Shown here: one piece after another, positions 14,782 through 51,976 of the stretch
How the letters are laid out: each line of letters begins with the position of its first letter
Numbering within the stretch: position 1 is the stretch's first letter
Source of the DNA: Macrostomum lignano
Lineage: Eukaryota
NCBI GenBank assembly: GCA_002269645.1
Contig: NIVC01002907.1
Coordinates: 60,204-124,203, forward strand
Length of the DNA stretch: 64,000 nt
Reading direction: 5' to 3'
Translations under genes and position numbers: made by a program
Notes under the pieces: model-generated
Told to the model about the DNA's origin: nothing
What the model saw: only the letters and a program-made list of their open reading frames with translations
The model's database searches: none

Positions 14782-28913
<14,132 letters not shown>

Positions 28914-31783: not shown

Positions 31784-33277
31784 GGCTCTACACAGTTTTT
31801 TTCACTTATACTTTGCCACTGGTTTCCAATTTCGACCAATTTACTTTGTAAGTTAACATTATAAACCTCCTAGACTGGACAAATATTAGATTTATAATCA
31901 GCCTTCATCAACGAAACTGAGCAAAGCTTTGGCCACCGCATGCAAAAAGTACATCGCCAGGCGGAAAAAAGTTCGCTCGAAAAAAATTGATATTCGCGCC
32001 CCCATAGTTGGCCTACTCGGGCGCTGTGCACAGTTTTCAGTCGCAGCAGCAATTTTATTTTTGTGACCCCGGCTTCCCGCGCCGCTCGGGTACCTTCTTC
32101 CCCTTCATAAAATCCTCATTCCCAACCTCTTTCGGGCTTGCCTGCCAAAAGCATTTCAACCGGCGGCATTTACCCTCGACTTGGCTGGAGCAGAAAATGC
32201 GATTGGCCCTGCGTGTGGGTGCGGCCGCGGCCTGGTAAATCACTTCCAAAATGGGCTATCAGACCCCCTTGATGAATTGGCTGGCCGGCGGCCCCATGCA
32301 GACGCATAGGAGAGCCTTAGGCATAGCGAAGAAGGGTTACCGGTGTTCAGTCAAACAATCCAGCGGAACCGCGGGCACTTATGACTACGTCTGGGGGGTG
32401 AGGGTTCTTGCGTTACACGTATATACTGGCATTCTAGATCCGCCTGCACATTGCGTTTCTTCTAGCCAGGTGTGCGAAGAAAGCGCAGCCAGCATAATTG
32501 CCAAGTGCTGCAAAGACTTCTGCAGCTCTGCCAGCATAGCCAAGTGTTGCATTGTCCGTCGCATAAAAAAGAACTGGCCATGTAGTAAATGTGCTGACTG
32601 TGGCATTTAAACGTAATTTGCCATTCTTTTTTGCGTTTTAAAAGTCTAATACAACGTAGATTTATGTTCACGATGTGCCGTTGAGATTTTACCAACCTGT
32701 AAATTATCCACGTGTCTTAATTGGAGTTGAATTGCAACAATCCAGGTGTCTTATTTGGAGTTGAATTGCAACAATCCAGGTGTCTTATTTGGAGTTGAAT
32801 TGCAACAATCCACGTGTCTTATTTGGAGTTGAAATGCAACAATCCAGGTGTCTTAATTGGAGTTGAAATGCAACAATCCAGGTGTCTTAATTGGAGTTGA
32901 AATGCAACAATCCAGGTGTCTTATTTGGAGTTGAAATGCAACAATCCACGTGTCTTAATTGGAGTTGAAATGCAACAATCCAGGTGTCTTAATTGGAGTT
33001 GAAATGCAACAATCCAGGTGTCTTAATTGGAGTTGAATTGCAACAATCCAGGTGTCTTAATTGGAGTTGAATTGCAACAATCCAGGTGTCTTATTTGGAG
33101 TTGAATTGCAACAATCCAGGTGTCTTATTTGGAGTTGAATTGCAACAATCCAGGTGTCTTATTTGGAGTTGAATTGCAACAATCCAGGTGTCTTATTTGG
33201 AGTTGAATTGCAACAATCCAGGTGTCTTAATTGGAGTTGAATTGCAACAATCCACGTGTCTTAATTGGAGTTGAAAT

Positions 33278-34468
33278 TGTGATAAATAGGCAATTAGATA
33301 ATAGCATGCACGGTAAGCAATTATTTAGGCCCTAGACAAATCTACTTGGAGCGTTTGGAGATTTTAAAGCTATTAATCCTAATCGCCTATCGCCGGTCGG
33401 CGAGTCCTACCAGTCTTTCTCCAATAGCCGCAGGTACAGTACAAGAAAATAAAGAACACGAGGGAACACAAACCGAAAGATTTAGAGAGTGATAATCCTA
33501 TTTCAAGAATAACTAACTTGATTGACGGTTTAATTTGATTAGCTGAGTTACAAGATTTAGAGCAAATTCGCGGCGCAGATAATTAGACTGATAATAACGA
33601 ATAATAACGATTAATAATAATGATTATATTACGCACTGACAAGCGGATCTCAGCTGAAGAAGAAGAAGGAGAAGGAGAACCGAACACGACCACGGAGAAG
33701 ACTCCTAACCCCTGGCCTAAGCCAGAACCTACTCTCAAACGAGAGCCCTGCCGAACCGACCGTTCAACGGAGTACCGACTAAATTCTATCGGCACTGCCC
33801 TTCAGTGTAACACTGAGGCCCTCGGGGTCGAGGCCGCGTACTTGATCAGATCCGACAGTCTCTATCTAACCGCGCTTGATAGCGACGACTTCAGACAGAA
33901 ATTTGCCGTAGACGTTACGCCACAAGACTACTGCGGTTGGGCGGAACAAAAAAATGGACCGGGGGTGATGAATTCAGGCGCCTCAAAGCGCGAACCAACA
34001 AGAGGAGAAAAATCGGGCCACCGGCCGGGAACTGGACAAGACAAAACCGGGGAAAGGGAGCAAGTGAGATCCGATTGCCAAAACACACTTTCATATATAG
34101 TCAGAGTCACAACCCCTCAAAACTCCCCTCAAGCCGGGTGGTGGTCGTCTGGCCGGCCGCTCGCTTAAGCCGAATTGCACTGTGCCCGCGGCGCCGGGTA
34201 GAATTGAAACTTGCCGCGTGCCAGGGTCCAGGCCGGTTCTGATTGGCTGACCGCGCAAAGCTGGGGTTCGCAGACAAACTCAACCCTCCGCTGAGTCACA
34301 AAATTGGCGTCTAACTCTAACCTGTTTACAATTTTAGATTTCAACCAACTAGAAAAAGTACACAAAAAAACGCATGACTAAACTAAAGCAAAATAACAAT
34401 TCAATAACAATATAGAAACTAATGCAGTCAATTTACAACAAAATACACGCAAAGATGCTCACACTACA
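33278..34468 (-). mobile_element. 3' LTR (1191 bp)
   Basis: Begins TGTGATAAAT after satellite AAAT, ends CACACTACA; PPT adjacent; matches 50787-51976 except a 1-bp C indel seen by eye. Confidence 0.95.
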
Positions 34469-34480
34469 CTCCCCCCTCCT
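34469..34480 (-). promoter_or_regulatory. Polypurine tract (AGGAGGGGGGAG)
   Basis: Immediately 5' of the 3' LTR on the element strand. Confidence 0.92.
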
Positions 34481-35037
34481 AAAAGAAATAGAGTACAAAA
34501 GAAGAAAAATTTGAAAAATTCGAACATGCGTAACATACTACTTTCAGTAAGCAAATGAGTACTATATAACGAAATTTGCGTTTACGGGAACCAAAATTCG
34601 CAAAACAAGCAATGTTACAACGAGAATAACTATAGCAACAGAAGAAAAAAAACGCAAATGGGAACACAACGTAATTCACTATGCAAAACATGACGCGACA
34701 ATGAAACGCAAGCAAGAACACAAATACAATTCTATGACACGGCAAAACGCAATCAAATACATAAGCAAAGCTACTATTCAATACGCGACACGACAAAACA
34801 CAAGCAAATCAATAAATAAATCGAAACAAATCGCGACGGAACGCAACGTTTACGCAAACTATGGCACGACTTTCTACAATCGAAAACTTAAAGCAAAACG
34901 CATGCTACCCATCACCAAGAACAAATAACGCGTTGACGCATTTTACACAAGTTAATTAAATTACTCCTTCACGACGTGCTAAGATGAACCTTATCGGCTG
35001 GCAAAATTTTATTACTCGCTGATTTAACTATCCGCAC

Positions 35038-35053
35038 CTCCCCCCTCCTAAAA
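35038..35053 (-). promoter_or_regulatory. Second, internal copy of the PPT region (TTTTAGGAGGGGGGAG)
   Basis: 16-nt exact match to 34469-34484. Confidence 0.75.
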
Positions 35054-35208
35054 AGGTAGGGTGGGCGCTACGACCCTCGCTGTCTCCACAGCGGAATTCT
35101 TATCGCAATTTTCCACGACGCTTATCTCTATCGGGTGCCTCGACGATAATTAACTCACGCCCACGCTCCCGTGGCGTTCCATCCACTCAGCGAAGTCTAT
35201 CGCCCATT

Positions 35209-35565
35209 GGCTGCAGTTTATGGTCTTGCCCAGGACCAATCCCCCTGGCGAAATTCACCGCCCAATGGCTGCAGTTTTCTGTCGTGCCCAGGACAAAGGC
35301 TCCTTTCTTTCGAACTTCAGTCTTTTGTGATTGCAGTTTAACGTCATGCCCATGACGTCGCTTTTCTATCTTTCTCGGACTTCTTTCGTCTCGTGGTTGC
35401 TTCTTTTGGTAATTTCTCTTCCTACGGCTGCAGTTTAACGTCGTGCCCAGGACGCCGGCTCTAGTGAACTTCCTTTCCAGCGGCTGCAGTTTAACGTCGT
35501 GCCCAGGACGCATCATTAGTTAGTTTCTCTCCTAGCGGTTGCAGTTTAACGTCGTGCCCAGGACG
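35209..35565 (-). repeat. Six 29-nt hairpin-containing repeats separated by non-identical spacers in the retrotransposon 3' UTR
   Basis: Plus-strand consensus GGCTGCAGTTTAACGTCGTGCCCAGGACG at 35209, 35267, 35329, 35426, 35482 and 35537; spacers 29, 33, 68, 27 and 26 nt. Confidence 0.9.
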
Positions 35566-36172
35566 CTTCAGACATTTCTAGCTGCAACATGTGACATGTC
35601 GATCAGCTGTAAGTTAGACTTATTTTTGCGTCAAGCAGTTTCTGACTCAAGCAATTTAAATAATATTTTTGTGTTGTTTTATGAAGCTTTTACAATTTTT
35701 ATGTTTTTATCAAATATTCACGCATGTCAGTTCTACTGCAAGACTGTTTTTTAATAGTTTTAATAATATTTTTTATTCCTTAATAATTTTCCCATAATAA
35801 TAATTCCGGATATACTGGCCGATGGAACCGCAGACGACTTCAATCTGGGCTCAATTCAATTTCAATTTCTATTTGCAACTTCCAATCGTTTCATATCTTC
35901 TATGGTCGTCTATGGTATTTCTCTTTCATTAGCGTCCTGGAATCTACCAGGTGTGGCAGCTCGAGCAGTTCGTCTTCAACTCCTGCAACTGCAGTGTCAA
36001 CATCAGCACTTCCAAGTCTCCATTATTTCCAATTTCTAATTTCTATTGACTATTTTTTCTCTGGTTCCATTTTCGTTCAACAAATTTCTCGCGTCTGTCT
36101 CGACAAGTTACTATTAGTAATACAATTGAAATTTTTCGTCTCGACAGTACTTTTCGTTTCCATAGACTCCAT

Positions 36173-39100
36173 TCAATGATAACCATATCGCTCCGGGGGT
36201 CTAATTGCCGCGCGGTTCCGCAGCCGCGGTATCCAGCTAACGTTATTCGTGCCTGCCCGCTGCGGGGGCGTACTGTGCACTGGACTCAGATGCATTAAAT
36301 TTGGTGGAGTGCGCACAGGAATCTGCCTGGCCTGAGACCCCGCAGGACTCGCCTGCGTCTGCTGGTTTGCATTGGCCGCTGTCTGAGTATTTTCGACTGC
36401 TCTATTCATATTACTTTCAGTAGCTTCGTGAGCTCTCTCACGTTGCAAAAATCTAATTCTCTCTGGTCTCTGAATCTCCACTTGGACTCGTTCTGACTCC
36501 TCCGAGCCGTCATCACTAGCACTTCCAGCTTCCTCTTCTCGATATTGACGCAACTTCTCTTCTGACAAGTAGCAGGGCTTTGTTCTGTCTACTGTCACTA
36601 CGTCATGAATTCTGACGGGCTGCTCTATTCGGTCAACCTTTGGACCGGGCTCAATTTTTAAATTTTTTCCATTATTTCTTACTTCAAGCACTCGATACGG
36701 ACCTACCCACTTCCTATTCGTATCATAACAATTCTGCGTATTCGCTATCCAGACCAGGTCACCTGGCTGATAATACTGCTGGAATACTTTCGTGTCATAA
36801 TTAGATTTCTGCCGCCTGACTGATATTTGTTGCTTTTCTCTGGCGATTCTATACGATTCCATGCACTTCTTATACAGATCATGTAAATGTTTATCACGGG
36901 TCTTGCGCTCCGGTGCAGGCAATCCGAGCTCAGCATCAACCGGTAGCCGCATCTTTCGACCATAGACTAATTCGAACGGGCTAAACTTATTACTTTCACT
37001 GATTGTGCTTCGCTGAACCATCAAAGCGTGCGGAAGCACCTCATCCCATGCCAAACTGAGTTCACTCTGAGCTAATCTGATTCCATCTTTCACTACTCTG
37101 ACCATGCGCTCGCAGCGACCGTTAGCTTGCGGATGGTAGCTAGTAGTATGGCGCAAATCTATTCGGAAATTTTCGGTTAACGATTTCACTAATTCTGCAG
37201 TAAACGATGTACCTCTGTCTGATATGAATGCTTCAGGGGCACCATGCCGAGTGATCCACTCTGTGTACAGGGCCCAAGCTGTACTTTCAGCTGTACAATC
37301 TCTCAGCGCTTTTACCTCTAGCCAGCCCGTAAAGTGATCGACCATCAGCAGGAGGTACTTGTTCCCCCGTGCTGTGGCGTTGAACGGACCGGCGAAATCT
37401 ATATGTACTTTCTCGCCCATGTAACTGCTGACTTCTGGTTCTAAGGGCGCTCGTGGCTTCGGCCCGTATTTCTTTCTTGTCTGGCACTCAGTACAAGTCT
37501 TAATATATCTATCTAAGTTCGTTGAATAGTTTGGCCACCAAAATCTCTGTCGAATCAAATCTTTAGTCTTCGAAATACCGCCGTGAGCCATTTGATCGTG
37601 GTAAGCTCTAAACAACTGCTGCTCCAGGGCTTGGTTTTCCGGCAGTACTGTCTGCTCAAATTTTCGGCCTTCGGAATCTATCCAATTCCTGTAAATTATG
37701 TCATTTTTCACTAATAGCTGCTCATAATCGCTAAATAAAGACTTATAACTGCGGCTCATTCCAACCCATTCATTCTTGGGCGGACAGGGCTCTCCCTGTC
37801 TGAGCTTTTGCTTGAGCAGCAGCAACTCTGGCTGGCTCTCCTGCAGTTCTACAATTCCCGCTGGCGTATCGATATTAATTGCACCGCAGTGGACTGTTGC
37901 TGTCTTCGTCGCACTGCAAGTGGGGCATTCCTCATGGTAGCGTTTCGGGGGACCATCCCGCTGAGGTCTGCGACTCAGGGCGTCTGCGTTACCATGGGCA
38001 ATCCCTTGGCGGTACTGAATTGCAAAGTCATATTCTTCCATTCTCGAGATAACTTCAAACTGATCGAACTGCTCAAGGATCATGTTCCATCTGCCTAACA
38101 TGCCTTTTGCACCGTGGCACTTGCGTAGCCATTGGAGGGCCGCGTGGTCTGTCCTGACCTTGAAACGACGGCCGACCAGATAAGGCCGGTAATGTTCTAA
38201 GAAATATATCAGCGCAAACATTTCCTTCATCGTAGTGCAGTAATTCAACTGATGCTCATTTAACGGATGCGAAGCATAGGCTATTACTTTTTCTTCCCCA
38301 TCTTGCTCTTGTAATAAATTTCCACCTATAGCTACGTCACAGGCGTCGACATCGAGGATGAACGGTCCCGCGTCGCTATCGAACCTGGGGTAGCTCAGTA
38401 CAGGTGCGCTTACTAGCTTCTGCTTTAATAGATCGAATGCCTTCTGGCAACTGTCATCCCACTTATACTTGACTTCTTTTCTAGTTAAATTATTTAAGGG
38501 CTCACTTATTCGCGCAAAGTCTTTAATAAATCTGCGATAGTAGCCGGCTAAGCCTAAGAATCCGCGCAGCTCAGAGATATTCTCTGGCCGGGGCCATGTT
38601 TGGACTTTTTCTATCTTATCTTTGCTGGTATAGATACCGTGCTGGCAGACGGTGTGCCCTAGGAAGGTGACTTCTTTCCGAAACAGAAAGGTCTTCTCTG
38701 GCTTGATTTTCATACCAGCATCTGCTAATCGAGAGAAAATTAATTCCAAATTACTGAGCATTTCTTCGAAATTCTTGCCTGTGCAAATAACATCATCTAG
38801 GTAAAGTAAAGCGAACTTATAAGCGTAATCGCCTAAGATCTTCTGCATTATGCGCTGAAAGCAAGCGGGTCCATTCGTGACTCCGAAAGGCAAAACTTTC
38901 CACTGGAACAGGCCATCATGGGTTCGAAACGCTAATTTCTCGCGGTCAGTCTCTCTGACCTTCACTGACCAATAAGCGCCGACCATGTCTAGGGTGCTAA
39001 AGTACATGTTGCCTGCCAGGGATTCCAGCGATTCTTGAATTAGCGGTAACGGAAAACTGTCCTTCTTAGTCTTATTATTTAACTGTCTGAAATCACAGCA

Positions 39101-40963
39101 AAATCTGAATTCTCCGGACTTCTTCCGGGCGAGAACAATAGGGCAACTCCACTCAGATTCTGAGGGCTCAATCAAATCGTGCTCTAACAGCTGCTGCACA
39201 TGCCCACTAACAAATTCTCGTTGCTCAGGGCTTTGCTTGCGCAGGGGAATTCTGACTGGGATTTCATCGGTAGTCTCGATCTTGAATTCGCCCATCTGGG
39301 TCTTGCCGATATCCCACTGATCCTTCGAAACTATATTCTGATAACGATGTAATAATTCAATTACTTTTGCCTTCTGAGCTTCACTTAAATCGGTCTCGTT
39401 TAAGCGGAATTGCTTTCTAATTCTTTCTGCTTCTTGCATCGTGACTGCTGCCTTCTGCTGCTTCCGCGCACCTGCTTCTAAATCAGTTTCTGACATTGCG
39501 AAAAGTTCTACTTCTTCCTTCATCGGTTGATACTGCGCAACTACCTCATCCTTATGAATTGTCTGAGCGTCTTCTGTCAGGTTCATTAATCTAACGTAAG
39601 TTTCGCCGAATTCGTCTAATCTAGTAATAGCTTTGGCTACTAATGGCTCATCTTTCTCGCTAATTTGACTGCGGCCTGAAATGAAGCCGAGTTCTGCAGT
39701 TTCTGGAGTATCTTTACATTTAGCCTTGACATAAATTTCGCTCATCGGTGCTATAGATACTTTCTTGACTACTTGCAGTAGGACGCAACGCGTTTCATCA
39801 CTCGTTGTTACAAGCGGAATTCTGCGATCACTAAATTCTAAGGATTTTCCTGCTATATCTAATTTAATTTTATGCCTAGTTAACAAGTCGATGCCTATTA
39901 TTGATGATGTTAGTAAGCCTTCAGCAACATAGAATGGGTGCGTAATCTCGCAGTCCCCGAATCTGACGCGCAATGCTACTTGGCCTAGTAAATTTGAAGT
40001 TTGGCCATTGGCGGATCGCATATTCACTGAGCATGGCTTCAGACTATGATTTGCCGGATAGAGGCGCTGATATAATTTCTTATCGATTAGGCAATTTGAG
40101 GCGCCGGTGTCAACTAATATTTTTTCACTTAATCCGTTAATCTGGCTATCGAGGAATAATCCTGAATTCACTAATTGGCTAGATATGTCTGCTTCTACGG
40201 TCTTCTCTCGCTTCTCTGTTGCTTTCTTTTCAGCTGCCACATCTCGCTGGATGGCTGTCTCTAACTTCCTTAATTCTTGCTTCATTTCCCTAAGTTCAGC
40301 TCTAAGTTCTGCTGTCGTGGCACTCTTGTCAGGTTCTTCTTTCGTTGATTCTTCTTGGACTTTTTCTACCAAGCATTGGCGCAAGTCCTTCAATTCGGTT
40401 CTTAGATCTGATAATTCTTTTACTACCTTAGATTCGTCTGCTGAAGCTTTCTGTCCTTCCACCTCACTGAGTCTCAAGTCTATGCTGTTTAATGCGCTTC
40501 TCTGAGCTGCCGCAGCTTCGCTTCGTTTCTCTAATTCTTCTATCAATGCCTCTGACTGTCTAGCTAAGCTCGCTGACTTCTGTTTATCGATTTCTGCTAA
40601 TCTGCGTTCCTCGCTTGAGCAAATTTTAACATTGACCGCTCTCTGTTTCCTACTATGAGTAGTATCGTTAGTGCGAATAAATTTTACTGTCGCCCTCTGG
40701 CGCAGAAAATGCATAATTTCGTAATCAGTTGCTATATTAGTATTAGTCACATGAAAGAATATATCTCTATTATTGCTATCTCGCAGGAATCCGTAGCCTC
40801 TGTAATAATTATACCAAACTAAATTTCCATATTCTACATTGACTGAGCTGTCTTGCTGGTCCTCTACTGCTGCAGCTCTTCTATTGGGAGTGAATCTGTT
40901 TAGTGGCTGGGGGCGGTTGGCCCTCCCTTGGTGCCGCCCCGTCGGTAGTTTAAAGAATTTCTT
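36173..40963 (-). CDS. pol: Gypsy Pol polyprotein: cold-shock domain, coiled coil, aspartic protease, RT, RNase H, integrase (GPY); expressed by -1 frameshift from gag
   Basis: Frame is stop-free from 40963 (track starts only at GTG 40750). Motifs: LVDTGAS (D at 40109-40111), YLDD (38792-38803), RNase H LDVDAC/KEMFAL/RTDH, integrase H-H-C-C zinc motif, IDFAG/SDRG/ERM and KWVGPYRV. Confidence 0.95.
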   Translation of the reverse strand, partial: KKFFKLPTGRHQGRANRPQPLNRFTPNRRAAAVEDQQDSSVNVEYGNLVWYNYYRGYGFLRDSNNRDIFFHVTNTNIATDYEIMHFLRQRATVKFIRTNDTTHSRKQRAVNVKICSSEERRLAEIDKQKSASLARQSEALIEELEKRSEAAAAQRSALNSIDLRLSEVEGQKASADESKVVKELSDLRTELKDLRQCLVEKVQEESTKEEPDKSATTAELRAELREMKQELRKLETAIQRDVAAEKKATEKREKTVEADISSQLVNSGLFLDSQINGLSEKILVDTGASNCLIDKKLYQRLYPANHSLKPCSVNMRSANGQTSNLLGQVALRVRFGDCEITHPFYVAEGLLTSSIIGIDLLTRHKIKLDIAGKSLEFSDRRIPLVTTSDETRCVLLQVVKKVSIAPMSEIYVKAKCKDTPETAELGFISGRSQISEKDEPLVAKAITRLDEFGETYVRLMNLTEDAQTIHKDEVVAQYQPMKEEVELFAMSETDLEAGARKQQKAAVTMQEAERIRKQFRLNETDLSEAQKAKVIELLHRYQNIVSKDQWDIGKTQMGEFKIETTDEIPVRIPLRKQSPEQREFVSGHVQQLLEHDLIEPSESEWSCPIVLARKKSGEFRFCCDFRQLNNKTKKDSFPLPLIQESLESLAGNMYFSTLDMVGAYWSVKVRETDREKLAFRTHDGLFQWKVLPFGVTNGPACFQRIMQKILGDYAYKFALLYLDDVICTGKNFEEMLSNLELIFSRLADAGMKIKPEKTFLFRKEVTFLGHTVCQHGIYTSKDKIEKVQTWPRPENISELRGFLGLAGYYRRFIKDFARISEPLNNLTRKEVKYKWDDSCQKAFDLLKQKLVSAPVLSYPRFDSDAGPFILDVDACDVAIGGNLLQEQDGEEKVIAYASHPLNEHQLNYCTTMKEMFALIYFLEHYRPYLVGRRFKVRTDHAALQWLRKCHGAKGMLGRWNMILEQFDQFEVISRMEEYDFAIQYRQGIAHGNADALSRRPQRDGPPKRYHEECPTCSATKTATVHCGAINIDTPAGIVELQESQPELLLLKQKLRQGEPCPPKNEWVGMSRSYKSLFSDYEQLLVKNDIIYRNWIDSEGRKFEQTVLPENQALEQQLFRAYHDQMAHGGISKTKDLIRQRFWWPNYSTNLDRYIKTCTECQTRKKYGPKPRAPLEPEVSSYMGEKVHIDFAGPFNATARGNKYLLLMVDHFTGWLEVKALRDCTAESTAWALYTEWITRHGAPEAFISDRGTSFTAELVKSLTENFRIDLRHTTSYHPQANGRCERMVRVVKDGIRLAQSELSLAWDEVLPHALMVQRSTISESNKFSPFELVYGRKMRLPVDAELGLPAPERKTRDKHLHDLYKKCMESYRIAREKQQISVRRQKSNYDTKVFQQYYQPGDLVWIANTQNCYDTNRKWVGPYRVLEVRNNGKNLKIEPGPKVDRIEQPVRIHDVVTVDRTKPCYLSEEKLRQYREEEAGSASDDGSEESERVQVEIQRPERIRFLQRERAHEATESNMNRAVENTQTAANANQQTQASPAGSQARQIPVRTPPNLMHLSPVHSTPPQRAGTNNVSWIPRLRNRAAIRPPERYGYH
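40622..40837 (-). other. Cold-shock (OB-fold RNA-binding) domain at the N-terminus of the Pol frame
   Basis: Manual translation: VEYGNLVWYNYYRGYGFLRDSNNRDIFFHVTNTNIATDYEIMHFLRQRATVKFIRTNDTTHSRKQRAVNVKI; aligns to the CspA/Y-box pattern G.V.W.N..KGYGFI....DVFVH....L.....V.F......A.NV. Confidence 0.82.
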
Positions 40964-42135
40964 CTAGTTGAACAGTCTCTAGCCAGGTGAGTTTCTTCGC
41001 CGCACTCATAACAGGCCTTTCTCGCATTTGGCGCGTTCGCCCCCGAAGGTTTGAACCTGTCATTGGCCCCTCCGGCCTCGTGACCAAAGCGTGGCGGGCG
41101 TGTCATGGCGGGCCTGACAAATGGCGAAGACTGACGATTATAGGGTCTCGAGTAGCTGCTCATGTGATGCTGTGGCCGAAAGCTATTCGGAGGCTGCACT
41201 GGTGCCTGTGGCCTATAGCTTGGGTTCATTTGTCTATGGGCAAACCTGGGTTGCCATTGCCTGTAGTCGAACTGAGGCTGATGATTCTGGTACGATTGGT
41301 ACTGCGAAGGATAGTTGCTCGGGGAAGCAAACTGAGGTCCAAATGACTGGTGGCCTTGCCCCGTGCTGGGTGCTGCTACAGGCGTCTGTTCCTTCCCTAC
41401 TTGAGCCGTTAACGTATTCGAGCCCTCTTGCTTCCTTCTACTCTTTTGGCTACCTGGGTTTGCGAGTTCTTCGAGGATCTCCTCGTTCTTAGCTGCAGTC
41501 AATAAATCTTGAGTCTGATACTTCGATTCATGGGTTCTACGATAGGCAATAACTGCGCGCCTGACTTTATAATTTGCTATGCCGGCTTCAAATCGTTCAG
41601 AAACTCGCTCTCGAGCCTGATTCTCTAGTCCTGCTTTCCTAACTAATTCAACTAGTGCGTCGTAAAATTCTTCTAACGATTCGTCTTCCTTCTGCCTGCG
41701 GTTCATCAGCTCTAGCTTTGCTTCTTCCTTCTGTCCTACGGGCTTAAATTTGTCCTTTAAAGTCTTTTCGATGCTTTCGAAAGATTCGGTGCTCGCTAGG
41801 CCTAAGTTAATGTAAACCTTATAGGCGTCTTCGTCTAGGAGCGACAATAGCTGATACACTTTGGCCGATTCGTCTATACTGTTGCCTTGACAGTAGTTGT
41901 TGAAGATTCTTAGAAACAATTCGAAATCTGAGCCAAGTCGGTATGGCTTTGGCTTTGCTACGCTGTTATGCGACTTCAAAATCACTCTAGGTTCGGGATT
42001 TTCGGTTTCCATTCTTCTTATGCGATCCTGCAGTTCTCTCACTACTGTTCTCAAATGTTCGGCCTCATCTATTTCGCCTTCGTTCCTAATCTCAGCTGAC
42101 TTCGATTCCTGACTATTTTCTCCGTCTTGCGCCAT
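40900..42135 (-). CDS. gag: Gypsy Gag (411 aa) with a single CX2CX4HX4C zinc knuckle
   Basis: ATG at 42135; helical capsid-like region; CYECGEETHLARDC at 41013-40972. Confidence 0.92.
   Translation of the reverse strand: MAQDGENSQESKSAEIRNEGEIDEAEHLRTVVRELQDRIRRMETENPEPRVILKSHNSVAKPKPYRLGSDFELFLRIFNNYCQGNSIDESAKVYQLLSLLDEDAYKVYINLGLASTESFESIEKTLKDKFKPVGQKEEAKLELMNRRQKEDESLEEFYDALVELVRKAGLENQARERVSERFEAGIANYKVRRAVIAYRRTHESKYQTQDLLTAAKNEEILEELANPGSQKSRRKQEGSNTLTAQVGKEQTPVAAPSTGQGHQSFGPQFASPSNYPSQYQSYQNHQPQFDYRQWQPRFAHRQMNPSYRPQAPVQPPNSFRPQHHMSSYSRPYNRQSSPFVRPAMTRPPRFGHEAGGANDRFKPSGANAPNARKACYECGEETHLARDCSTRRNSLNYRRGGTKGGPTAPSH
40909..40954 (-). promoter_or_regulatory. -1 programmed ribosomal frameshift signal (T TTA AAC plus downstream GC-rich stem)
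   Basis: Slippery heptamer at 40954-40948 is in gag phase; pol is the -1 frame; GGGGCGG/CCGCCCC stem starts 7 nt downstream. Confidence 0.85.
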
Positions 42136-42642
42136 TGCTAAGTTTTAATCAATCGGAATTTCTATTACTGCAACTTCAGAAAGTACAACTTGTAAAGCTA
42201 TAACAATTTCAATGATCTAGCTCTCTATTGTATCTACTGAGCGGAATCGGTCGCCTCGCTCGCACTGGCAATAACTGATAAGAAAAACTGAATGTACACT
42301 GAGACAAATTCAACCGGTGTACTCTCTAGTGCGCGCACTCGCAGACTATGCTAATAAACACTAATAAAATTTTCAACTGTAAACAAAATCTACTTTCACA
42401 CGCAAGTTTCTATTAAAGTGCTAATTTTAGTTTTAGAAGGTCAATTTTATTTTTCCCACTCCTAAATCCTATTCAGTATTTTGGGGTAACTGGCCAACCG
42501 CAAAACCACACCTAATGCGGAATTGCTGCACACTGCGTGGTTGACGAAATAGCCGCTACGAGCCTGGAACAGACTCGTTGAATTTTAGTCTAAGCTTGCT
42601 CACTTAGAGCGCCTACCAATAAACTGCCGCCTGCTAACTATT

Positions 42643-42660
42643 GGATTCCCAGGGGCTCCA
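42643..42660 (-). promoter_or_regulatory. Primer-binding-site-like sequence TGGAGCCCCTGGGAATCC
   Basis: Starts with TGG 2 nt after the 5' LTR end (...TCACA ag TGG); priming tRNA not assignable by eye. Confidence 0.7.
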
Positions 42661-42662
42661 CT

Positions 42663-42983
42663 TGTGATAAATAGGCAATTAGATAATAGCATGCACGGTA
42701 AGCAATTATTTAGGCCCTAGACAAATCTACTTGGAGCGTTTGGAGATTTTAAAGCTATTAATCCTAATCGCCTATCGCCGGTCGGCGAGTCCTACCAGTC
42801 TTTCTCCAATAGCCGCAGGTACAGTACAAGAAAATAAAGAACACGAGGGAACACAAACCGAAAGATTTAGAGAGTGATAATCCTATTTCAAGAATAACTA
42901 ACTTGATTGACGGTTTAATTTGATTAGCTGAGTTACAAGATTTAGAGCAAATTCGCGGCGCAGATAATTAGACTGATAATAAC
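42663..42983 (-). mobile_element. 5' LTR, truncated to the 321-bp U5-side end
   Basis: Identical by eye to 33278-33598, then switches to satellite via ...GATAATAAC|AACAACAATCC. Confidence 0.93.
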
Positions 42984-44820
42984 AACAACAATCCAGGTGT
43001 CTTAATTGGAGTTGAATTGCAACAATCCAGGTGTCTTAATTCGAGTTGAATTGCAACAATCCACGTGTCTTAATTGGAGTTGAATTGCAACAATCCAGGT
43101 GTCTTAATTGGAGTTGAAATGCAACAATCCAGGTGTCTTATTTGGAGTTGAAATGCAACAATCCAGGTGTCTTATTTGGAGTTGAATTGCAACAATCCAC
43201 GTGTCTTAATTGGAGTTGAATTGCAACAATCCAGGTGTCTTATTTGGAGTTGAATTGCAACAATCCACGTGTCTTAATTGGAGTTGAAATGCAACAATCC
43301 ACGTGTCTTAATTGGAGTTGAATTGCAACAATCCAGGTGTCTTATTTGGAGTTGAATTGCAACAATCCAGGTGTCTTAATTGGAGTTGAATTGCAACAAT
43401 CCACGTGTCTTAATTGGAGTTGAATTGCAACAATCCACGTGTCTTAATTGGAGTTGAATTGCAACAATCCACGTGTCTTAATTGAAGTTGAAATGCAACA
43501 ATCCACGTGTCTTAATTGAAGTTGAATTGCAACAATCCACGTGTCTTAATTGGAGTTGAATTGCAATAATCCACGTGTTTTAATTGGAGTTGAATTGCAA
43601 CAATCCACGTGTCTTAATTGAAGTTGAAATGCAACAATCCACGTGTCTTAATTGGAGTTGAATTGCAACAATCCACGTGTCTTAATTGGAGTTGAATTGC
43701 AACAATCCAGGTGTCTTAATTGGAGTTGAATTGCAACTATCCAGGTGTCTTATTTGAAGTTGAATTGCAACAATCCAGGTGTCTTTTTTGGAGTTGAATT
43801 GCAACAATCCAGGTGTCTTAATTGGAGTTGAATTGCAACAATCCAGGTGTCTTATTTGGAGTTGAATTGCAACAATCCAGGTGTCTTATTTGGAGTTGAA
43901 TTGCAACAATCCAGGTGTCTTAATTGGAGTTGAAATGCAACAATCCAGGTGTCCTTTTTGGAGTTGAATTGCAACAATCCACGTGTCTTTTTTGGAGTTG
44001 AATTGCAACAATCCAGGTGTCTTATTTGAAGTTGAATTGCAACAATCCAGGTGTCTTAATTGGAGTTGAATTGCAACAATCCAGGTGTCTTAATTGGAGT
44101 TGAATTGCAACAATCCAGGTGTCTTAATTGGAGTTGAATTGCAACAATCCAGGTGTCTTAATTGGAGTTGAATTGCAACAATCCAGGTGTCTTAATTGGA
44201 GTTGAATTGCAACAATCCAGGTGTCTTATTTGGAGTTGAATTGCAACAATCCACGTGTCTTAATTGGAGTTGAATTGCAACAATCCACGTGTCTTAATTG
44301 AAGTTGAAATGCAACAATCCACGTGTCTTAATTGAAGTTAAAATGCAACAATCCACGAGTCTTAATTGGAGTTGAATTGCAACAATCCACGTGTCTTAAT
44401 TGGAGTTGAAATGCAACAATCCAGGTGTCTTAATTGGAGTTGAATTGCAACAATCCAGGTGTCTTATTTGGAGTTGAATTGCAACAATCCAGGTGTCTTA
44501 ATTGGAGTTGAAATGCAACAATCCAGGTGTCTTAATTGGAGTTGAAATGCAACAATCCAGGTGTCTTATTTGGAGTTGAATTGCAACAATCCACGTGTCT
44601 TAATTGGAGTTGAATTGCAACAATCCAGGTGTCTTAATTGAAGTTGAAATGCAACAATCCAGGTGTCTTATTTGGAGTTGAATTGCAACAATCCACGTGT
44701 CTTAATTGGAGTTGAAATGCAACAATCTACGTGTCTTAATTGGAGTTGAATTGCAACAATCCAGGTGTCTTAATTGGAGTTGAATTGCAACAATCCACGT
44801 GTCTTAATTGGAGTTGAAAT

Positions 44821-45141
44821 TGTGATAAATAGGCAATTAGATAATAGCATGCACGGTAAGCAATTATTTAGGCCCTAGACAAATCTACTTTGAGCGTTTG
44901 GAGATTTTAAAGCTATTAATCCTAATCGCCTATCGCCGGTCGGCGAGTCCTACCAGTCTTTCTCCAATAGCCGCAGGTACAGTACAAGAAAATAAAGAAC
45001 ACGAGGGAACACAAACCGAAAGATTTAGAGAGTGATAATCCTATTTCAAGAATAACTAACTTGATTGACGGTTTAATTTGATTAGCTGAGTTACAAGATT
45101 TAGAGCAAATTCGCGGCGCAGATAATTAGACTGATAATAAC
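44821..45141 (-). mobile_element. Orphan 321-bp LTR fragment in the satellite
   Basis: Same left junction as 33278 (TTGAAAT|TGTGATA) and same right junction as 42983; one G>T SNP near 44891. Confidence 0.93.
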
Positions 45142-48100
45142 AACAACAATCCACGTGTCTTAATTGGAGTTGAATTTCAACAATCCACGTGTCTTAATTG
45201 GAGTTGAATTGCAACAATCCAGGTGTCTTATTTGGAGTTGAATTGCAACTATCCACGTGTCTTATTTGGAGTTGAATTGCAACAATCCAGGTGTCTTTTT
45301 TGGAGTTGAATTGCAACAATCCAGGTGTCTTAATTGGAGTTGAATTGCAACAATCCAGGTGTCTTATTTGGAGTTGAATTGCAACAATCCAGGTGTCTTA
45401 TTTGGAGTTGAATTGCAACAATCCAGGTGTCTTAATTGGAGTTGAAATGCAACAATCCAGGTGTCCTTTTTGGAGTTGAATTGCAACAATCCACGTGTCT
45501 TTTTTGGAGTTGAATTGCAACAATCCAGGTGTCTTATTTGAAGTTGAATTGCAACAATCCAGGTGTCTTAATTGGAGTTGAATTGCAACAATCCAGGTGT
45601 CTTAATTGGAGTTGAATTGCAACAATCCAGGTGTCTTAATTGGAGTTGAATTGCAACAATCCAGGTGTCTTAATTGGAGTTGAATTGCAACAATCCAGGT
45701 GTCTTAATTGAAGTTGAATTGCAACAATCCAGGTGTCTTATTTGGAGTTGAATTGCAACAATCCACGTGTCTTAATTGGAGTTGAATTGCAACAATCCAC
45801 GTGTCTTAATTGAAGTTGAAATGCAACAATCCACGTGTCTTAATTGAAGTTAAAATGCAACAATCCACGAGTCTTAATTGGAGTTGAATTGCAACAATCC
45901 ACGTGTCTTAATTGGAGTTGAAATGCAACAATCCAGGTGTCTTAATTGGAGTTGAATTGCAACAATCCAGGTGTCTTATTTGGAGTTGAATTGCAACAAT
46001 CCAGGTGTCTTAATTGGAGTTGAAATGCAACAATCCACGTGTCTTAATTGGAGTTGAATTGCAACAATCCAGGTGTCTAAATTGAAGTTGAAATGCAACA
46101 ATCCAGGTGTCTTATTTGGAGTTGAATTGCAACAATCCACGTGTCTTAATTGGAGTTGAAATGCAACAATCTACGTGTCTTAATTGGAGTTGAATTGCAA
46201 CAATCCAGGTGTCTTAATTGGAGTTGAATTGCAACAATCCAGGTGTCTTAATTCGAGTTGAATTGCAACAATCCACGTGTCTTAATTGGAGTTGAATTGC
46301 AACAATCCACGTGTCTTAATTGGAGTTGAAATGCAACAATCCAGGTGTCTTAATTGGAGTTGAATTGCAACTATCCAGGTGTCTTATTTGGAGTTGAATT
46401 GCAACAATCCACGTGTCTTAATTGGAGTTGAATTGCAAAAATCCAGGTGTCTTATTTGGAGTTGAATTGCAACAATCCACGAGTCTTAATTGGAGTTGAA
46501 TTGCAACAATCCACGTGTCTTAATTGGAGTTGAAATGCAACAATCCAGGTGTCTTAATTGGAGTTGAATTGCAACAATCCAGGTGTCCTAGTTGGAGTTG
46601 AATTGCAACAATCCACGTGTCTTAATTGGAGTTGAATTGCAACAATCCACGTGTCTTAATTGAAGTTGAAATGCAACAATCCACGTGTCTTAATTGAAGT
46701 TAAAATGCAACAATCCACGAGTCTTAATTGGAGTTGAATTGCAACAATCCAGGTGTCTTAATTGGAGTTGAATTGCAACAATCCACGTGTCTTAATTGGA
46801 GTTGAAATGCAACAATCCAGGTGTCTTAATTGGAGTTGAATTGCAACAATCCAGGTGTCTTATTTGGAGTTGAATTGCAACAATCCAGGTGTCTTAATTG
46901 GAGTTGAAATGCAACAATCCACGTGTCTTAATTGGAGTTGAATTGCAACAATCCAGGTGTCTTAATTGAAGTTGAAATGCAACAATCCAGGTGTCTTATT
47001 TGGAGTTGAATTGCAACAATCCAGGTGTCTTAATTGGAGTTGAAATGCAACAATCTACGTGTCTTAATTGGAGTTGAATTGCAACAATCCAGGTGTCTTA
47101 ATTGGAGTTGAATTGCAACAATCCAGGTGTCTTAATTCGAGTTGAATTGCAACAATCCACGTGTCTTAATTAGAGTTGAATTGCAACAATCCACGTGTCT
47201 TAATTGGAGTTGAAATGCAACAATCCAGGTGTCTTATTTGGAGTTGAAATGCAACAATCCAGGTGTCTTATTTGGAGTTGAATTGCAACAATCCAGGTGT
47301 CTTAATTGGAGTTGAATTGCAACAATCCAGGTGTCATATTTGGAGTTGAATTGCAACAATCCACGTGTCTTAATTGGAGTTGAAATGCAACAATCCACGT
47401 GTCTTAATTGGAGTTGAATTGCAACAATCCAGGTGTCTTATTTGGAGTTGAATTGCAACAATCCAGGTGTCTTAATTGGAGTTGAATTGCAACAATCCAG
47501 GTGTCTTAATTGGAGTTGAATTGCAACAATCCAGGTGTCTTAATTGGAGTTGAATTGCAACAATCCACGTGTCTTAATTGAAGTTGAAATGCAACAATCC
47601 ACGTGTCTTAATTGAAGTTGAAATGCAACAATCCACGTGTCTTAATTGGAGTTGAATTGCAATAATCCACGTGTTTTAATTGGAGTTGAATTGCAACAAT
47701 CCACGTGTCTTAATTGAAGTTGAAATGCAACAATCCACGTGTCTTAATTGGAGTTGAATTGCAACAATCCACGTGTCTTAATTGGAGTTGAATTGCAACA
47801 ATCCAGGTGTCTTATTTGGAGTTGAATTGCAACTATCCAGGTGTCTTATTTGGAGTTGAATTGCAACAATCCAGGTGTCTTTTTTGGAGTTGAATTGCAA
47901 CAATCCAGGTGTCTTAATTGGAGTTGAATTGCAACAATCCAGGTGTCTTATTTGGAGTTGAATTGCAACAATCCACGTGTCTTAATTGGAGTTGAATTGC
48001 AACAATCCACGTGTCTTAATTGAAGTTGAAATGCAACAATCCACGTGTCTTAATTGAAGTTAAAATGCAACAATCCACGAGTCTTAATTGGAGTTGAATT

Positions 48101-50786
48101 GCAACAATCCAGGTGTCTTAATTGGAGTTGAATTGCAACAATCCACGTGTCTTAATTGGAGTTGAAATGCAACAATCCAGGTGTCTTAATTGGAGTTGAA
48201 TTGCAACAATCCAGGTGTCTTATTTGGAGTTGAATTGCAACAATCCAGGTGTCTTAATTGGAGTTGAAATGCAACAATCCACGTGTCTTAATTGGAGTTG
48301 AATTGCAACAATCCAGGTGTCTTAATTGAAGTTGAAATGCAACAATCCAGGTGTCTTATTTGGAGTTGAATTGCAACAATCCACGTGTCTTAATTGGAGT
48401 TGAAATGCAACAATCTACGTGTCTTAATTGGAGTTGAATTGCAACAATCCAGGTGTCTTAATTGGAGTTGAATTGCAACAATCCACGTGTCTTAATTGAA
48501 GTTAAAATGCAACAATCCACGAGTCTTAATTGGAGTTGAATTGCAACAATCCAGGTGTCTTAATTGGAGTTGAATTGCAACAATCCACGTGTCTTAATTG
48601 GAGTTGAAATGCAACAATCCAGGTGTCTTAATTGGAGTTGAATTGCAACAATCCAGGTGTCTTATTTGGAGTTGAATTGCAACAATCCAGGTGTCTTAAT
48701 TGGAGTTGAAATGCAACAATCCACGTGTCTTAATTGGAGTTGAATTGCAACAATCCAGGTGTCTTAATTGAAGTTGAAATGCAACAATCCAGGTGTCTTA
48801 TTTGGAGTTGAATTGCAACAATCCAGGTGTCTTAATTGGAGTTGAAATGCAACAATCTACGTGTCTTAATTGGAGTTGAATTGCAACAATCCAGGTGTCT
48901 TAATTGGAGTTGAATTGCAACAATCCAGGTGTCTTAATTCGAGTTGAATTGCAACAATCCACGTGTCTTAATTAGAGTTGAATTGCAACAATCCACGTGT
49001 CTTAATTGGAGTTGAAATGCAACAATCCAGGTGTCTTATTTGGAGTTGAAATGCAACAATCCAGGTGTCTTATTTGGAGTTGAAATGCAACAATCCAGGT
49101 GTCTTAATTGGAGTTGAATTGCAACAATCCAGGTGTCTTATTTGGAGTTGAATTGCAACAATCCACGTGTCTTAATTGGAGTTGAAATGCAACAATCCAC
49201 GTGTCTTAATTGGAGTTGAATTGCAACAATCCAGGTGTCTTATTTGGAGTTGAATTGCAACAATCCAGGTGTCTTAATTGGAGTTGAATTGCAACAATCC
49301 ACGTGTCTTAATTGGAGTTGAATTGCAACAATCCAGGTGTCTTAATTGGAGTTGAATTGCAACAATCCACGTGTCTTAATTGAAGTTGAAATGCAACAAT
49401 CCACGTGTCTTAATTGAAGTTGAAATGCAACAATCCACGTGTCTTAATTGGAGTTGAATTGCAATAATCCACGTGTTTTAATTGGAGTTGAATTGCAACA
49501 ATCCACGTGTCTTAATTGAAGTTGAAATGCAACAATCCACGTGTCTTAATTGGAGTTGAATTGCAACAATCCACGTGTCTTAATTGGAGTTGAATTGCAA
49601 CAATCCAGGTGTCTTATTTGGAGTTGAATTGCAACTATCCAGGTGTCTTAATTGGAGTTGAATTGCAACAATCCAGGTGTCTTATTTGGAGTTGAATTGC
49701 AACAATCCAGGTGTCTTAATTGGAGTTGAATTGCAACAATCCAGGTGTCTTATTTGGAGTTGAATTGCAACAATCCAGGTGTCTTTTTTGGAGTTGAATT
49801 GCAACAATCCAGGTGTCTTAATTGAAGTTGAAATGCAACAATCCACGTGTCTTAATTGAAGTTAAAATGCAACAATCCACGAGTCTTAATTGGAGTTGAA
49901 TTGCAACAATCCAGGTGTCTTAATTGGAGTTGAATTGCAACAATCCACGTGTCTTAATTGGAGTTGAAATGCAACAATCCAGGTGTCTTAATTGGAGTTG
50001 AATTGCAACAATCCAGGTGTCTTATTTGGAGTTGAATTGCAACAATCCAGGTGTCTTAATTGGAGTTGAAATGCAACAATCCACGTGTCTTAATTGGAGT
50101 TGAATTGCAACAATCCAGGTGTCTTAATTGAAGTTGAAATGCAACAATCCAGGTGTCTTATTTGGAGTTGAATTGCAACAATCCACGTGTCTTAATTGGA
50201 GTTGAAATGCAACAATCTACGTGTCTTAATTGGAGTTGAATTGCAACAATCCAGGTGTCTTATTTGGAGTTGAATTGCAACAATCCAGGTGTCTTAATTC
50301 GAGTTGAATTGCAACAATCCACGTGTCTTAATTGAAGTTGAAATGCAACAATCCACGTGTCTTAATTGGAGTTGAATTGCAATAATCCACGTGTTTTAAT
50401 TGGAGTTGAATTGCAACAATCCACGTGTCTTAATTGAAGTTGAAATGCAACAATCCAGGTGTCTTAATTGGAGTTGAATTGCAACTATCCAGGTGTCTTA
50501 ATTGGAGTTGAATTGCAACAATCCAGGTGTCTTATTTGGAGTTGAATTGCAACAATCCACGTGTCTTAATTGGAGTTGAATTGCAACAATCCAGGTGTCT
50601 TATTTGGAGTTGAATTGCAACAATCCAGGTGTCTTATTTGGAGTTGAATTGCAACAATCCAGGTGTCTTATTTGGAGTTGAATTGCAACAATCCAGGTGT
50701 CTTATTTGGAGTTGAATTGCAACAATCCAGGTGTCTTAATTGGAGTTGAATTGCAACAATCCACGTGTCTTAATTGGAGTTGAAAT

Positions 50787-51976
50787 TGTGATAAATAGGC
50801 AATTAGATAATAGCATGCACGGTAAGCAATTATTTAGGCCCTAGACAAATCTACTTGGAGCGTTTGGAGATTTTAAAGCTATTAATCCTAATCGCCTATC
50901 GCCGGTCGGCGAGTCCTACCAGTCTTTCTCCAATAGCCGCAGGTACAGTACAAGAAAATAAAGAACACGAGGGAACACAAACCGAAAGATTTAGAGAGTG
51001 ATAATCCTATTTCAAGAATAACTAACTTGATTGACGGTTTAATTTGATTAGCTGAGTTACAAGATTTAGAGCAAATTCGCGGCGCAGATAATTAGACTGA
51101 TAATAACGAATAATAACGATTAATAATAATGATTATATTACGCACTGACAAGCGGATCTCAGCTGAAGAAGAAGAAGGAGAAGGAGAACCGAACACGACC
51201 ACGGAGAAGACTCCTAACCCTGGCCTAAGCCAGAACCTACTCTCAAACGAGAGCCCTGCCGAACCGACCGTTCAACGGAGTACCGACTAAATTCTATCGG
51301 CACTGCCCTTCAGTGTAACACTGAGGCCCTCGGGGTCGAGGCCGCGTACTTGATCAGATCCGACAGTCTCTATCTAACCGCGCTTGATAGCGACGACTTC
51401 AGACAGAAATTTGCCGTAGACGTTACGCCACAAGACTACTGCGGTTGGGCGGAACAAAAAAATGGACCGGGGGTGATGAATTCAGGCGCCTCAAAGCGCG
51501 AACCAACAAGAGGAGAAAAATCGGGCCACCGGCCGGGAACTGGACAAGACAAAACCGGGGAAAGGGAGCAAGTGAGATCCGATTGCCAAAACACACTTTC
51601 ATATATAGTCAGAGTCACAACCCCTCAAAACTCCCCTCAAGCCGGGTGGTGGTCGTCTGGCCGGCCGCTCGCTTAAGCCGAATTGCACTGTGCCCGCGGC
51701 GCCGGGTAGAATTGAAACTTGCCGCGTGCCAGGGTCCAGGCCGGTTCTGATTGGCTGACCGCGCAAAGCTGGGGTTCGCAGACAAACTCAACCCTCCGCT
51801 GAGTCACAAAATTGGCGTCTAACTCTAACCTGTTTACAATTTTAGATTTCAACCAACTAGAAAAAGTACACAAAAAAACGCATGACTAAACTAAAGCAAA
51901 ATAACAATTCAATAACAATATAGAAACTAATGCAGTCAATTTACAACAAAATACACGCAAAGATGCTCACACTACA
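50787..51976 (-). mobile_element. Solo LTR (1190 bp) with 4-bp target-site duplication AAAT
   Basis: GAAAT|TGT...ACA|AAATGCAAC restores the satellite monomer TTGAAATGCAAC with AAAT duplicated. Confidence 0.94.

Follow-up and report, generated by a model that had tools for sequence, protein, structure and literature searches.

What six short repeats parted by different-looking sequences are doing in the 3' UTR of a retrotransposon is the question raised by this locus. The repeats lie at 35209-35565 of the window (the whole analysed stretch of 64,000 nucleotides) and had been described in a first-pass annotation as a CRISPR-like repeat-spacer array of covarying hairpins. All six were recovered, with periods of 58, 62, 97, 56 and 55 nt (a 29-nt repeat plus spacers of 29, 33, 68, 27 and 26 nt), as were the base-pair changes recorded within them. 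The placement in a retrotransposon 3' UTR was also confirmed: the array is found between the pol stop codon (36173, minus strand) and the polypurine tract (PPT) and 3' LTR of a Ty3/gypsy element (Table 1), about 600 nt past the stop and about 730 nt before the LTR, in a UTR of 1.7 kb. It must therefore belong to the genomic RNA. As this RNA is read from the minus strand, R6 comes first and R1 last, and the periods along it are 55, 56, 97, 62 and 58 nt.

Pol of this element is 99% identical to a Macrostomum lignano protein, which points to this flatworm as the host; the next relative (P0004) is 59% identical, and in a further full-library protein search the best relative, the M. lignano copy aside, reached about 51%. 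The cold-shock-domain match in Pol (E=8.6e-6, 26 bits against a Pfam cut-off of 27) falls just below threshold, and a literature search returned nothing on cold-shock domains in Ty3 elements. The upstream copy of the PPT lies about 160 nt 3' of the last unit, R1, with the canonical PPT 569 nt further downstream; the flanks of the two copies are non-homologous, and the upstream copy could serve as primer for a second plus strand. Between the two PPTs, a 553-nt U-rich tract (34485-35037, minus strand; 44% U) holds loosely repeated UUUGCG/UUUGUG-like words and is a candidate for single-strand RNA binders. At the other end of the element, the promoter-bearing part of the 5' LTR is replaced by a 34-bp satellite. 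According to the available part of PMC12801592, the Ty3/gypsy (Ty3/Mdg4) elements of M. lignano share with this one gag, the -1 frameshift, the PR-RT-RH-INT order, the PPT and TG...CA LTRs. They differ in LTR length (223-402 nt in the six families searched, 1.19 kb here), and the cold-shock-like domain in Pol, the doubled PPT and the array set the present element apart from them.

Table 1. Coordinates of the retrotransposon, the array units and the hairpins behind them.
Feature	Position	Strand	Remarks
Ty3/gypsy LTR retrotransposon		-	LTRs, PPT, gag and pol in PR-RT-RH-INT order present
3' LTR	33277..34468	-	1192 nt, TG...CA, TATA-like box at 34099
Canonical PPT	34469..34484	-	abuts 3' LTR
Second PPT copy, upstream	35038..35053	-	16 nt identical to canonical PPT
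Second hairpin of R1	35183..35210	-	inner 5-bp stem 35189-35204
Unit R1	35213..35238	-	last on RNA; outer pairs G-C and U-A
Second hairpin of R2	35241..35268	-	inner 5-bp stem 35247-35262
Unit R2	35271..35296	-	outer pairs U-A and U.G; spacer starts GA
Unit R3	35333..35358	-	loop ends A-U; stem extends to tetraloop hairpin
Unit R4	35430..35455	-	core same as R6
Unit R5	35486..35511	-	core same as R6
Unit R6	35541..35566	-	5-bp hairpin, 8-nt loop, A-rich spacer; would be met first by a 5'-3' nuclease
pol ORF	36173..40963	-	1596 aa; cold-shock domain, protease, RT, RNase H, integrase (Pfam)
Cold-shock-domain match	~40625-40828	-	Pol aa 46-113; start of Pol, N-terminal to protease
gag ORF	40900..42144	-	zinc knuckle (Pfam); overlaps pol in -1 frame
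gag-pol -1 slippery site	40945-40954	-	U UUA AAC; 7-bp hairpin behind
PBS-like stretch	42640-42661	-	starts TGG, after 5' LTR
5' LTR remnant	42662..42983	-	last 322 nt only; then PBS-like stretch

The cores of the repeats are 25 nt long and are identical in R4-R6, the end that had been named as the best conserved. Between copies, 19-25 of 25 core positions were identical against 8-18 of 26 in the adjacent linker bases, and in R4-R6 the linkers differed at 9-10/26 positions. The linkers of several copies could be aligned (R6/R5, p=0.004; R6/R4, p=0.001; R5/R4, p=0.021; R2/R1, p=0.0005), with p<0.05 in 6 of the 15 pairs, and the tandem repeat finder TRF gave a 55-nt period across R4-R6. At the sequence level, these alignments show a decayed tandem duplication of a 55-62-nt unit, in which the core was conserved and the linkers drifted; the 'spacers' are homologous because they are the diverged parts of the tandem units. 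They had been described as different spacers in the first-pass annotation, which had itself named spacers alignable with each other as one of the observations that would speak against its reading. A CRISPR-like array that acquires spacers and is processed at its repeats, suggested by palindromic repeats set between different-looking sequences, is thus refuted: the spacers are tandem remnants of 26-68 nt, not of near-constant length, no CRISPR repeat was matched in Rfam, the two ORFs of the element encode nothing but retrotransposon domains and the cold-shock domain, no cas genes were found by Pfam in these two ORFs and one other of the window's 36 long ORFs, and the host is an animal. R3 is possibly a degenerate copy. 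A 109-codon ATG ORF running through the array (35187-35516, minus strand) was considered as coding and set aside, the repeat periods not being multiples of three; it is probably due to chance.

The repeats had been folded on the plus strand. The element is transcribed from the minus strand, which has CUGGGCAC as the loop and places the conserved arm 3' of the hairpin: in the 25-nt core, a 5-bp stem closes an 8-nt loop and NNAAACUGC comes next, and in R4-R6 the core reads CGUC CUGGGCAC GACG UUAAACUGC. The stem-tetraloop proposed earlier is one reading only, its innermost position (C.C, A-U or C.A) being paired in 1/6 copies. The 5-bp stem is possible in all six. Its outer pair 1 varies between C-G, U-A and G-C, and outer pair 2 (the fifth pair) between G.U (three copies), A-U, U.G and U-A; this fifth pair holds in 6/6 copies on the sense strand and in 2/6 on the antisense strand, which points to selection at the RNA level. 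The covariation claimed earlier was borne out: for the stem and a 3-bp loop-spacer helix taken together, 48 of 48 cells pair and the score was reached by none of 500 shuffles, a figure that, the units being six related paralogues, is not a true p-value. Slid controls were 15-50% paired. The loop-spacer pairs are invariant among the six copies and hence without covariation of their own, and the loop middle, UGGGCA, is likewise invariant in the array units.

Selection on the structure of the RNA is supported by these data. Selection on an RNA or single-stranded DNA structure had been proposed; it is the RNA part that stands, and more strongly than was claimed, the fifth covarying pair being confined to the sense strand. 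Folding of the 451-nt region gave a stability not unusual against shuffles (z=+1.17 sense, -0.16 antisense). When pseudoknot energy was left aside, the first hairpin was disfavoured in R2 (P=0.02) and formed in part in R4 and R5 (0.30-0.36). For R3, P was 1.0 for the stem and 0.18 for an unpaired loop A; the extended tetraloop stem of this copy would compete with loop-spacer pairing.

Short conserved words between drifting linkers are also typical of arrays of DNA-level protein-binding sites, such as an insulator or enhancer, and GTC-N8-GAC has dyad symmetry. In the 5' UTR of Drosophila gypsy, the Su(Hw) repeats, whose spacers vary, are an arrangement of this kind. An array of DNA sites is nevertheless very unlikely here, as it would leave unexplained the G.U and U.G pairs, which form on the transcribed strand only, the C-G to U-A and G-C swaps and the match of the units to a motif of RNA viruses.

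That match is a near-identity to the Xrn1-resistant motif coremin, visible on the minus strand only and missed in the earlier annotation. Coremin is a 20-nt Xrn1-stalling element of benyviruses and cucumoviruses (PMC10520033). Identity was scored at the 16 non-loop positions against the coremin 20-mer printed in that paper, with the loop left free, and was 15/16 in R3-R6, 13/16 in R1 and 12/16 in R2; the comparison covered published text and tables, and the sequence lists in published figures may hold closer variants. Among 20,000 shuffled 56-nt units (both strands, loops of 4-8 nt) the best reached 13/16 and none 14, and the analytic chance of at least 15/16 was 3.7e-6 per unit, or about 8e-7 given a hairpin. 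A loose coremin descriptor (three Watson-Crick pairs, Y-R closure, loop of 4-8, AAACURC) found six sites in the 64-kb window, every one of them a sense-strand site within the array, against means of 0.049 (UTR) and 1.17 (window) in shuffles; the descriptor was written after the repeats had been seen and the six copies have one origin, so that the fair figures are those per unit (113 matches in 200,000 shuffled units).

Several rules of the motif are followed by every copy. The first hairpin has 5 bp and a C-G closing pair in 6/6, in keeping with the coremin rule of 3-5 bp and a pyrimidine-purine closing pair (PMC6546385); spacer length and A15-U19 are intact in 6/6; and all six lie in a UTR on the element's coding strand, as in viral coremins. 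Variation among the copies is found in the bottom pairs, at positions 13 and 14 and at the two loop ends, and positions 15-21 and A22 never vary. According to BNYVV mutagenesis, the bottom pair, the fifth pair and positions 13-14 are free, and A16-A20 and the closing pair are not (PMC6546385); the differences among copies thus fall on positions that mutagenesis or natural isolates tolerate. Loops of 8 nt, 5-bp stems and a 3' UTR position are found among viral coremins; other viruses have functional loops of 6-8 nt, and BSBMV, TAV and PMTV carry the motif in tandem (PMC10520033, PMC6546385). With xrRNA-C (BNYVV RNA3, cucumoviruses and others; PMC6546385, PMC10520033) the units share the stem letters, the C-G closing pair, the spacer length, 8/9 spacer bases in R3-R6, A22, the sense-strand 3' UTR location and the tandem arrangement. 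Unlike xrRNA-C, they have an 8-nt loop with U at position 2, G at position 20 and a weak second hairpin in 4/6, number six copies, and have as their carrier not an RNA virus but an LTR retrotransposon of an animal genome.

The 8-nt loop is within the coremin range of 4-8 nt, for which the consensus is YGAD / YGNNAD (PMC10520033). Scored against YG..AD, the first base is Y in 5/6 copies, the second G in 0/6 (it is U in all, which breaks the consensus), the penultimate A in 6/6 and the last D in 2/6. The last base is C in four copies and otherwise U or A, and the working octaloop of GRV also ends in C (PMC10520033). Spacer position 20 is G in 6/6, not the A of coremin; A20U abolishes resistance (PMC6546385), A20C works with a loop partner (PMC10321173), and no resistance test of A20G was found in the available text and tables of the coremin papers. 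The long linker between R4 and R3 contains a 3-bp hairpin (35361-35380, minus strand) whose 7-nt loop fits YG..AD and which has AAA but not CUAC after it; this is possibly a decayed canonical coremin or a chance occurrence.

In the register of a second class, xrRNA-WCC, G20 has a partner in the loop. In that class, pairing of loop positions 6 and 7 with 20 and 19 was proven by disrupt-restore mutants (PMC10321173). Here, pairs 6-20 (C-G) and 7-19 (A-U) are possible in 6/6 copies, and loop GCA can pair with spacer UGC (A-U19, C-G20 and G-C21, the loop being counted from its 3' end). The units resemble the xrRNA-WCC found in SPlV5 (Sanxia picorna-like virus 5) and screen hits 1 and 2 (PMC10321173) in the 6-20/7-19 register, in A7-U19 as in SPlV5, and, with loop positions again numbered from the 3' side, in having a G at the place equivalent to G5 (6/6 copies, with four bases before the G). 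They differ in that pair 6-20 is C-G and not G-C; in that G8-C18, required in the SPlV5 context (PMC10321173), is absent in 6/6; in the four extra bases of their 8-nt loop, which does not match the WCC tetraloop with G5 as single L1 base; and in the possible third pair G-C21. In the WCC screen, 15 of the 17 variants tested were non-resistant, several with possible loop-spacer pairs (PMC10321173), so that complementarity alone does not predict resistance. The GCA-UGC pairs being invariant among the copies, the pseudoknot is given here as a possible part of the modelled fold.

A second hairpin is strictly required for resistance in both xrRNA-C and xrRNA-WCC (PMC10520033, PMC10321173); two base pairs are enough for coremin in vitro (PMC10520033), and in xrRNA-WCC the hairpin is needed for Xrn1 resistance and not for frameshifting (PMC10321173). 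Those of R1 (-11.6 kcal/mol; 3/200 shuffles as good) and R2 (-10.1 kcal/mol; 12/200) have the same second stem with pairing-neutral changes and a diverged loop. The second hairpin of R6 is minimal (2 bp and a tetraloop, -1.1 kcal/mol; 59/200 shuffles as good) and that of R5 weak (-1.7 kcal/mol; 144/200). No stable one is predicted for R4 (best +0.8 kcal/mol) or R3 (+0.5 kcal/mol). CC-loop-GG occurs two bases after C21 in 5/6 units.

By the rules tested, the array is a member of neither published coremin class, and is claimed to act alike. On the motif identity and the pattern of variation, it is rather probably a coremin-like variant of a new kind, which would halt decay in the 5'-3' direction so that nested 3' fragments remain. 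Each unit would fold into a small H-type pseudoknot in which loop GCA pairs with spacer UGC and the AAA run occupies the first stem's minor groove, the second hairpin lying behind, as in the Watson-Crick coremin model. Genomic RNA decapped or cut upstream, by piRNA slicing or NMD, would be degraded 5'-3' by Xrn1, which would stall about 1 nt ahead of a unit, as coremin stalls the enzyme about 1 nt before its hairpin. The predicted result is a ladder of 3'-coterminal RNAs, with 5' ends 55, 56, 97, 62 and 58 nt apart and lengths up to about 2.0-2.3 kb, which would keep both PPTs and U3-R. Tandem copies may provide redundancy, R1 and R2 being the best-built. An active piRNA pathway silences transposons in M. 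lignano (PMC4604429), and in yeast the P-bodies are where Ty3 RNA and Xrn1 come together (PMC4589538), which makes an encounter between the array and Xrn1 plausible.

What such fragments would do is a matter of speculation: they might act like flaviviral sfRNA or BNYVV ncRNA3, as a silencing decoy or by slowing Xrn1, or they might keep the 3' end available for reverse transcription. The full account, in which a six-fold array of new coremin-type pseudoknots, either captured from an RNA virus or evolved convergently, would use Xrn1 to make sfRNA-like RNAs as a counter-defence against piRNA/RNAi decay or for preservation of PPT-U3-R, is put forward tentatively and is doubtful as a whole. The likeness to flaviviral xrRNAs, sfRNA and class 3 xrRNA-LT (PMC12397905) is one of proposed logic only, namely tandem 3' UTR roadblocks that would give nested subgenomic RNAs; their folds are larger, with 54 nt and a 9-bp pseudoknot in ST9a and three-way junctions in flaviviruses. 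Class 3 xrRNAs were considered as coremins and rejected, the fold being different and coremin going unmentioned in the available part of PMC12397905.

Some findings count against a roadblock. These are the loop that breaks the consensus, the absence of G8-C18, G20, the non-resistance of most WCC screen variants tested, the second hairpin being strong in only 2/6 copies and at or above 0 kcal/mol in another 2/6, the low or partial formation of the first hairpin in R2, R4 and R5 when folded without pseudoknots, the invariance of the loop-spacer pairs, the lack of a related array in the 79 distant loci scanned, the fact that UUAAACURC also arises in the slippery sites of gypsy elements (see below) and the carriage of the array by an element copy whose 5' LTR is largely missing. 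Another role might be served by this selected fold, as a multivalent site for Gag/NC, the cold-shock domain of Pol or a host protein (for packaging, localisation or NMD avoidance in the 1.7-kb UTR), or as a block to another 5'-3' motor. Strand-specific covariation argues for RNA-level selection and names no function; the invariant loop middle is longer than the pseudoknot needs, and both a cold-shock-like domain and a zinc knuckle are encoded by the element. Scanning ribosomes are stalled by coremin motifs too, and frameshifting is stimulated by them (PMC10520033, PMC10321173); the hairpin that Xrn1 resistance needs, and WCC frameshifting does not, is weak in 4/6 copies. Such a role is nonetheless unlikely, since it leaves the 15/16 match of stem and spacer to an exonuclease-resistance motif unexplained, and scanning or frameshifting would have no evident use 600 nt beyond the last stop codon.

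Related arrays were looked for in other elements. Rfam (E<=10, 33200-36300) gave three chance matches only (E 3.3-4.4), and blastn against phage gave chance matches only. A profile search with a 20-protein alignment was made, and the best 79 of 292 confirmed gypsy loci were scanned (29-48% identical over the best segment; 614,901 nt). In none of these 79 distant loci was a related array found by descriptor, identity or covariance model, a weak negative, many of the loci being short or ending before the 3' UTR and all being distant. The descriptor gave 13 sites, spread over 11 loci, where 15 shuffles yielded 6-17, with no clustered pair; the best identity to coremin was 13/16, with none higher; wider pseudoknot descriptors gave scattered matches only. 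The covariance model found nothing better than E=0.84 outside the window, and within it reported three of the six units because its 66-nt span overlaps the neighbours. The best-looking match, in locus L019, proved to be the gag-pol slippery site of that element and was rejected as a unit; UUAAACURC thus also arises in gypsy slippery sites, both there and at 40945-40953 of the window. The slippery site of the present element, U UUA AAC, spells the exact 9-nt coremin spacer, probably by coincidence. A search of genome contigs for the DNA of P0004 gave nine pattern matches, none of them confirmed, so that this DNA was not found there, and the motif was not matched in the alignments of six other M. 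lignano families, which are partial and line-wrapped in the available part of PMC12801592.

P0004, the closest relative of Pol, is labelled a protein of a bacterial metagenome-assembled genome (MAG), and 292 confirmed gypsy pol stretches of eukaryotic type were found on contigs of GTDB representative MAGs; gypsy pol in these bins is likely host contamination.

The lack of a relative with an array, in the 79 distant loci and the genome-contig search for P0004, would also fit a functionless relic: a chance or virus-captured hairpin multiplied by RT slippage, its copies alike through recent duplication or conversion. Linkers alignable in two subgroups, the TRF period over R4-R6, regional folding no better than shuffles and a degenerate-looking R3 are in line with such an origin. 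It is quite improbable all the same: the cores are far closer to each other than the linkers, those of R4-R6 have stayed identical while their linkers came to differ, the changes in the stem come in sets that preserve pairing, and between R1 and R2 the second stem is kept as its loop drifts.

If a coremin-like roadblock is confirmed, retrotransposons and RNA viruses would have a post-transcriptional counter-defence in common, and an xrRNA encoded in a genome could be tested in a transgenic animal model whose piRNA pathway is known. In the available parts of the literature examined, Xrn1-resistant RNAs of the coremin type come from RNA viruses only, and no report of a natural xrRNA in a retroelement was found among the papers listed by a literature search in which subscription journals are largely missing. 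The fold of coremin was without a solved structure in the 2023 papers on it. Six natural copies with a changed loop-spacer pair would offer a direct test of the pseudoknot model and a wider descriptor for mining, and the pair of loop C and spacer G would be a natural covariation that helps to fix the unsolved fold.

The retrotransposon sits inside a 34-bp satellite. The stretches 2507-14401, 42986-56633 and 15992-16187 consist of large satellites (32-bp and 34-bp) and of a 12-bp telomere-like array that is perfect. A solo LTR with a 4-bp ATTT target duplication is present at 50786-51976 and partial LTRs at 44820-45158 and 42662-42983, all 99.4-100% identical. The LTR ends at 33277, 44820 and 50786 share a common satellite junction, so that the LTR copies look like satellite-driven duplicates of one insertion. 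Elsewhere in the window, a gene for a neurotransmitter-gated ion channel (PF02932, E=7e-8) probably has its last exon at 28065-28913 (plus strand).
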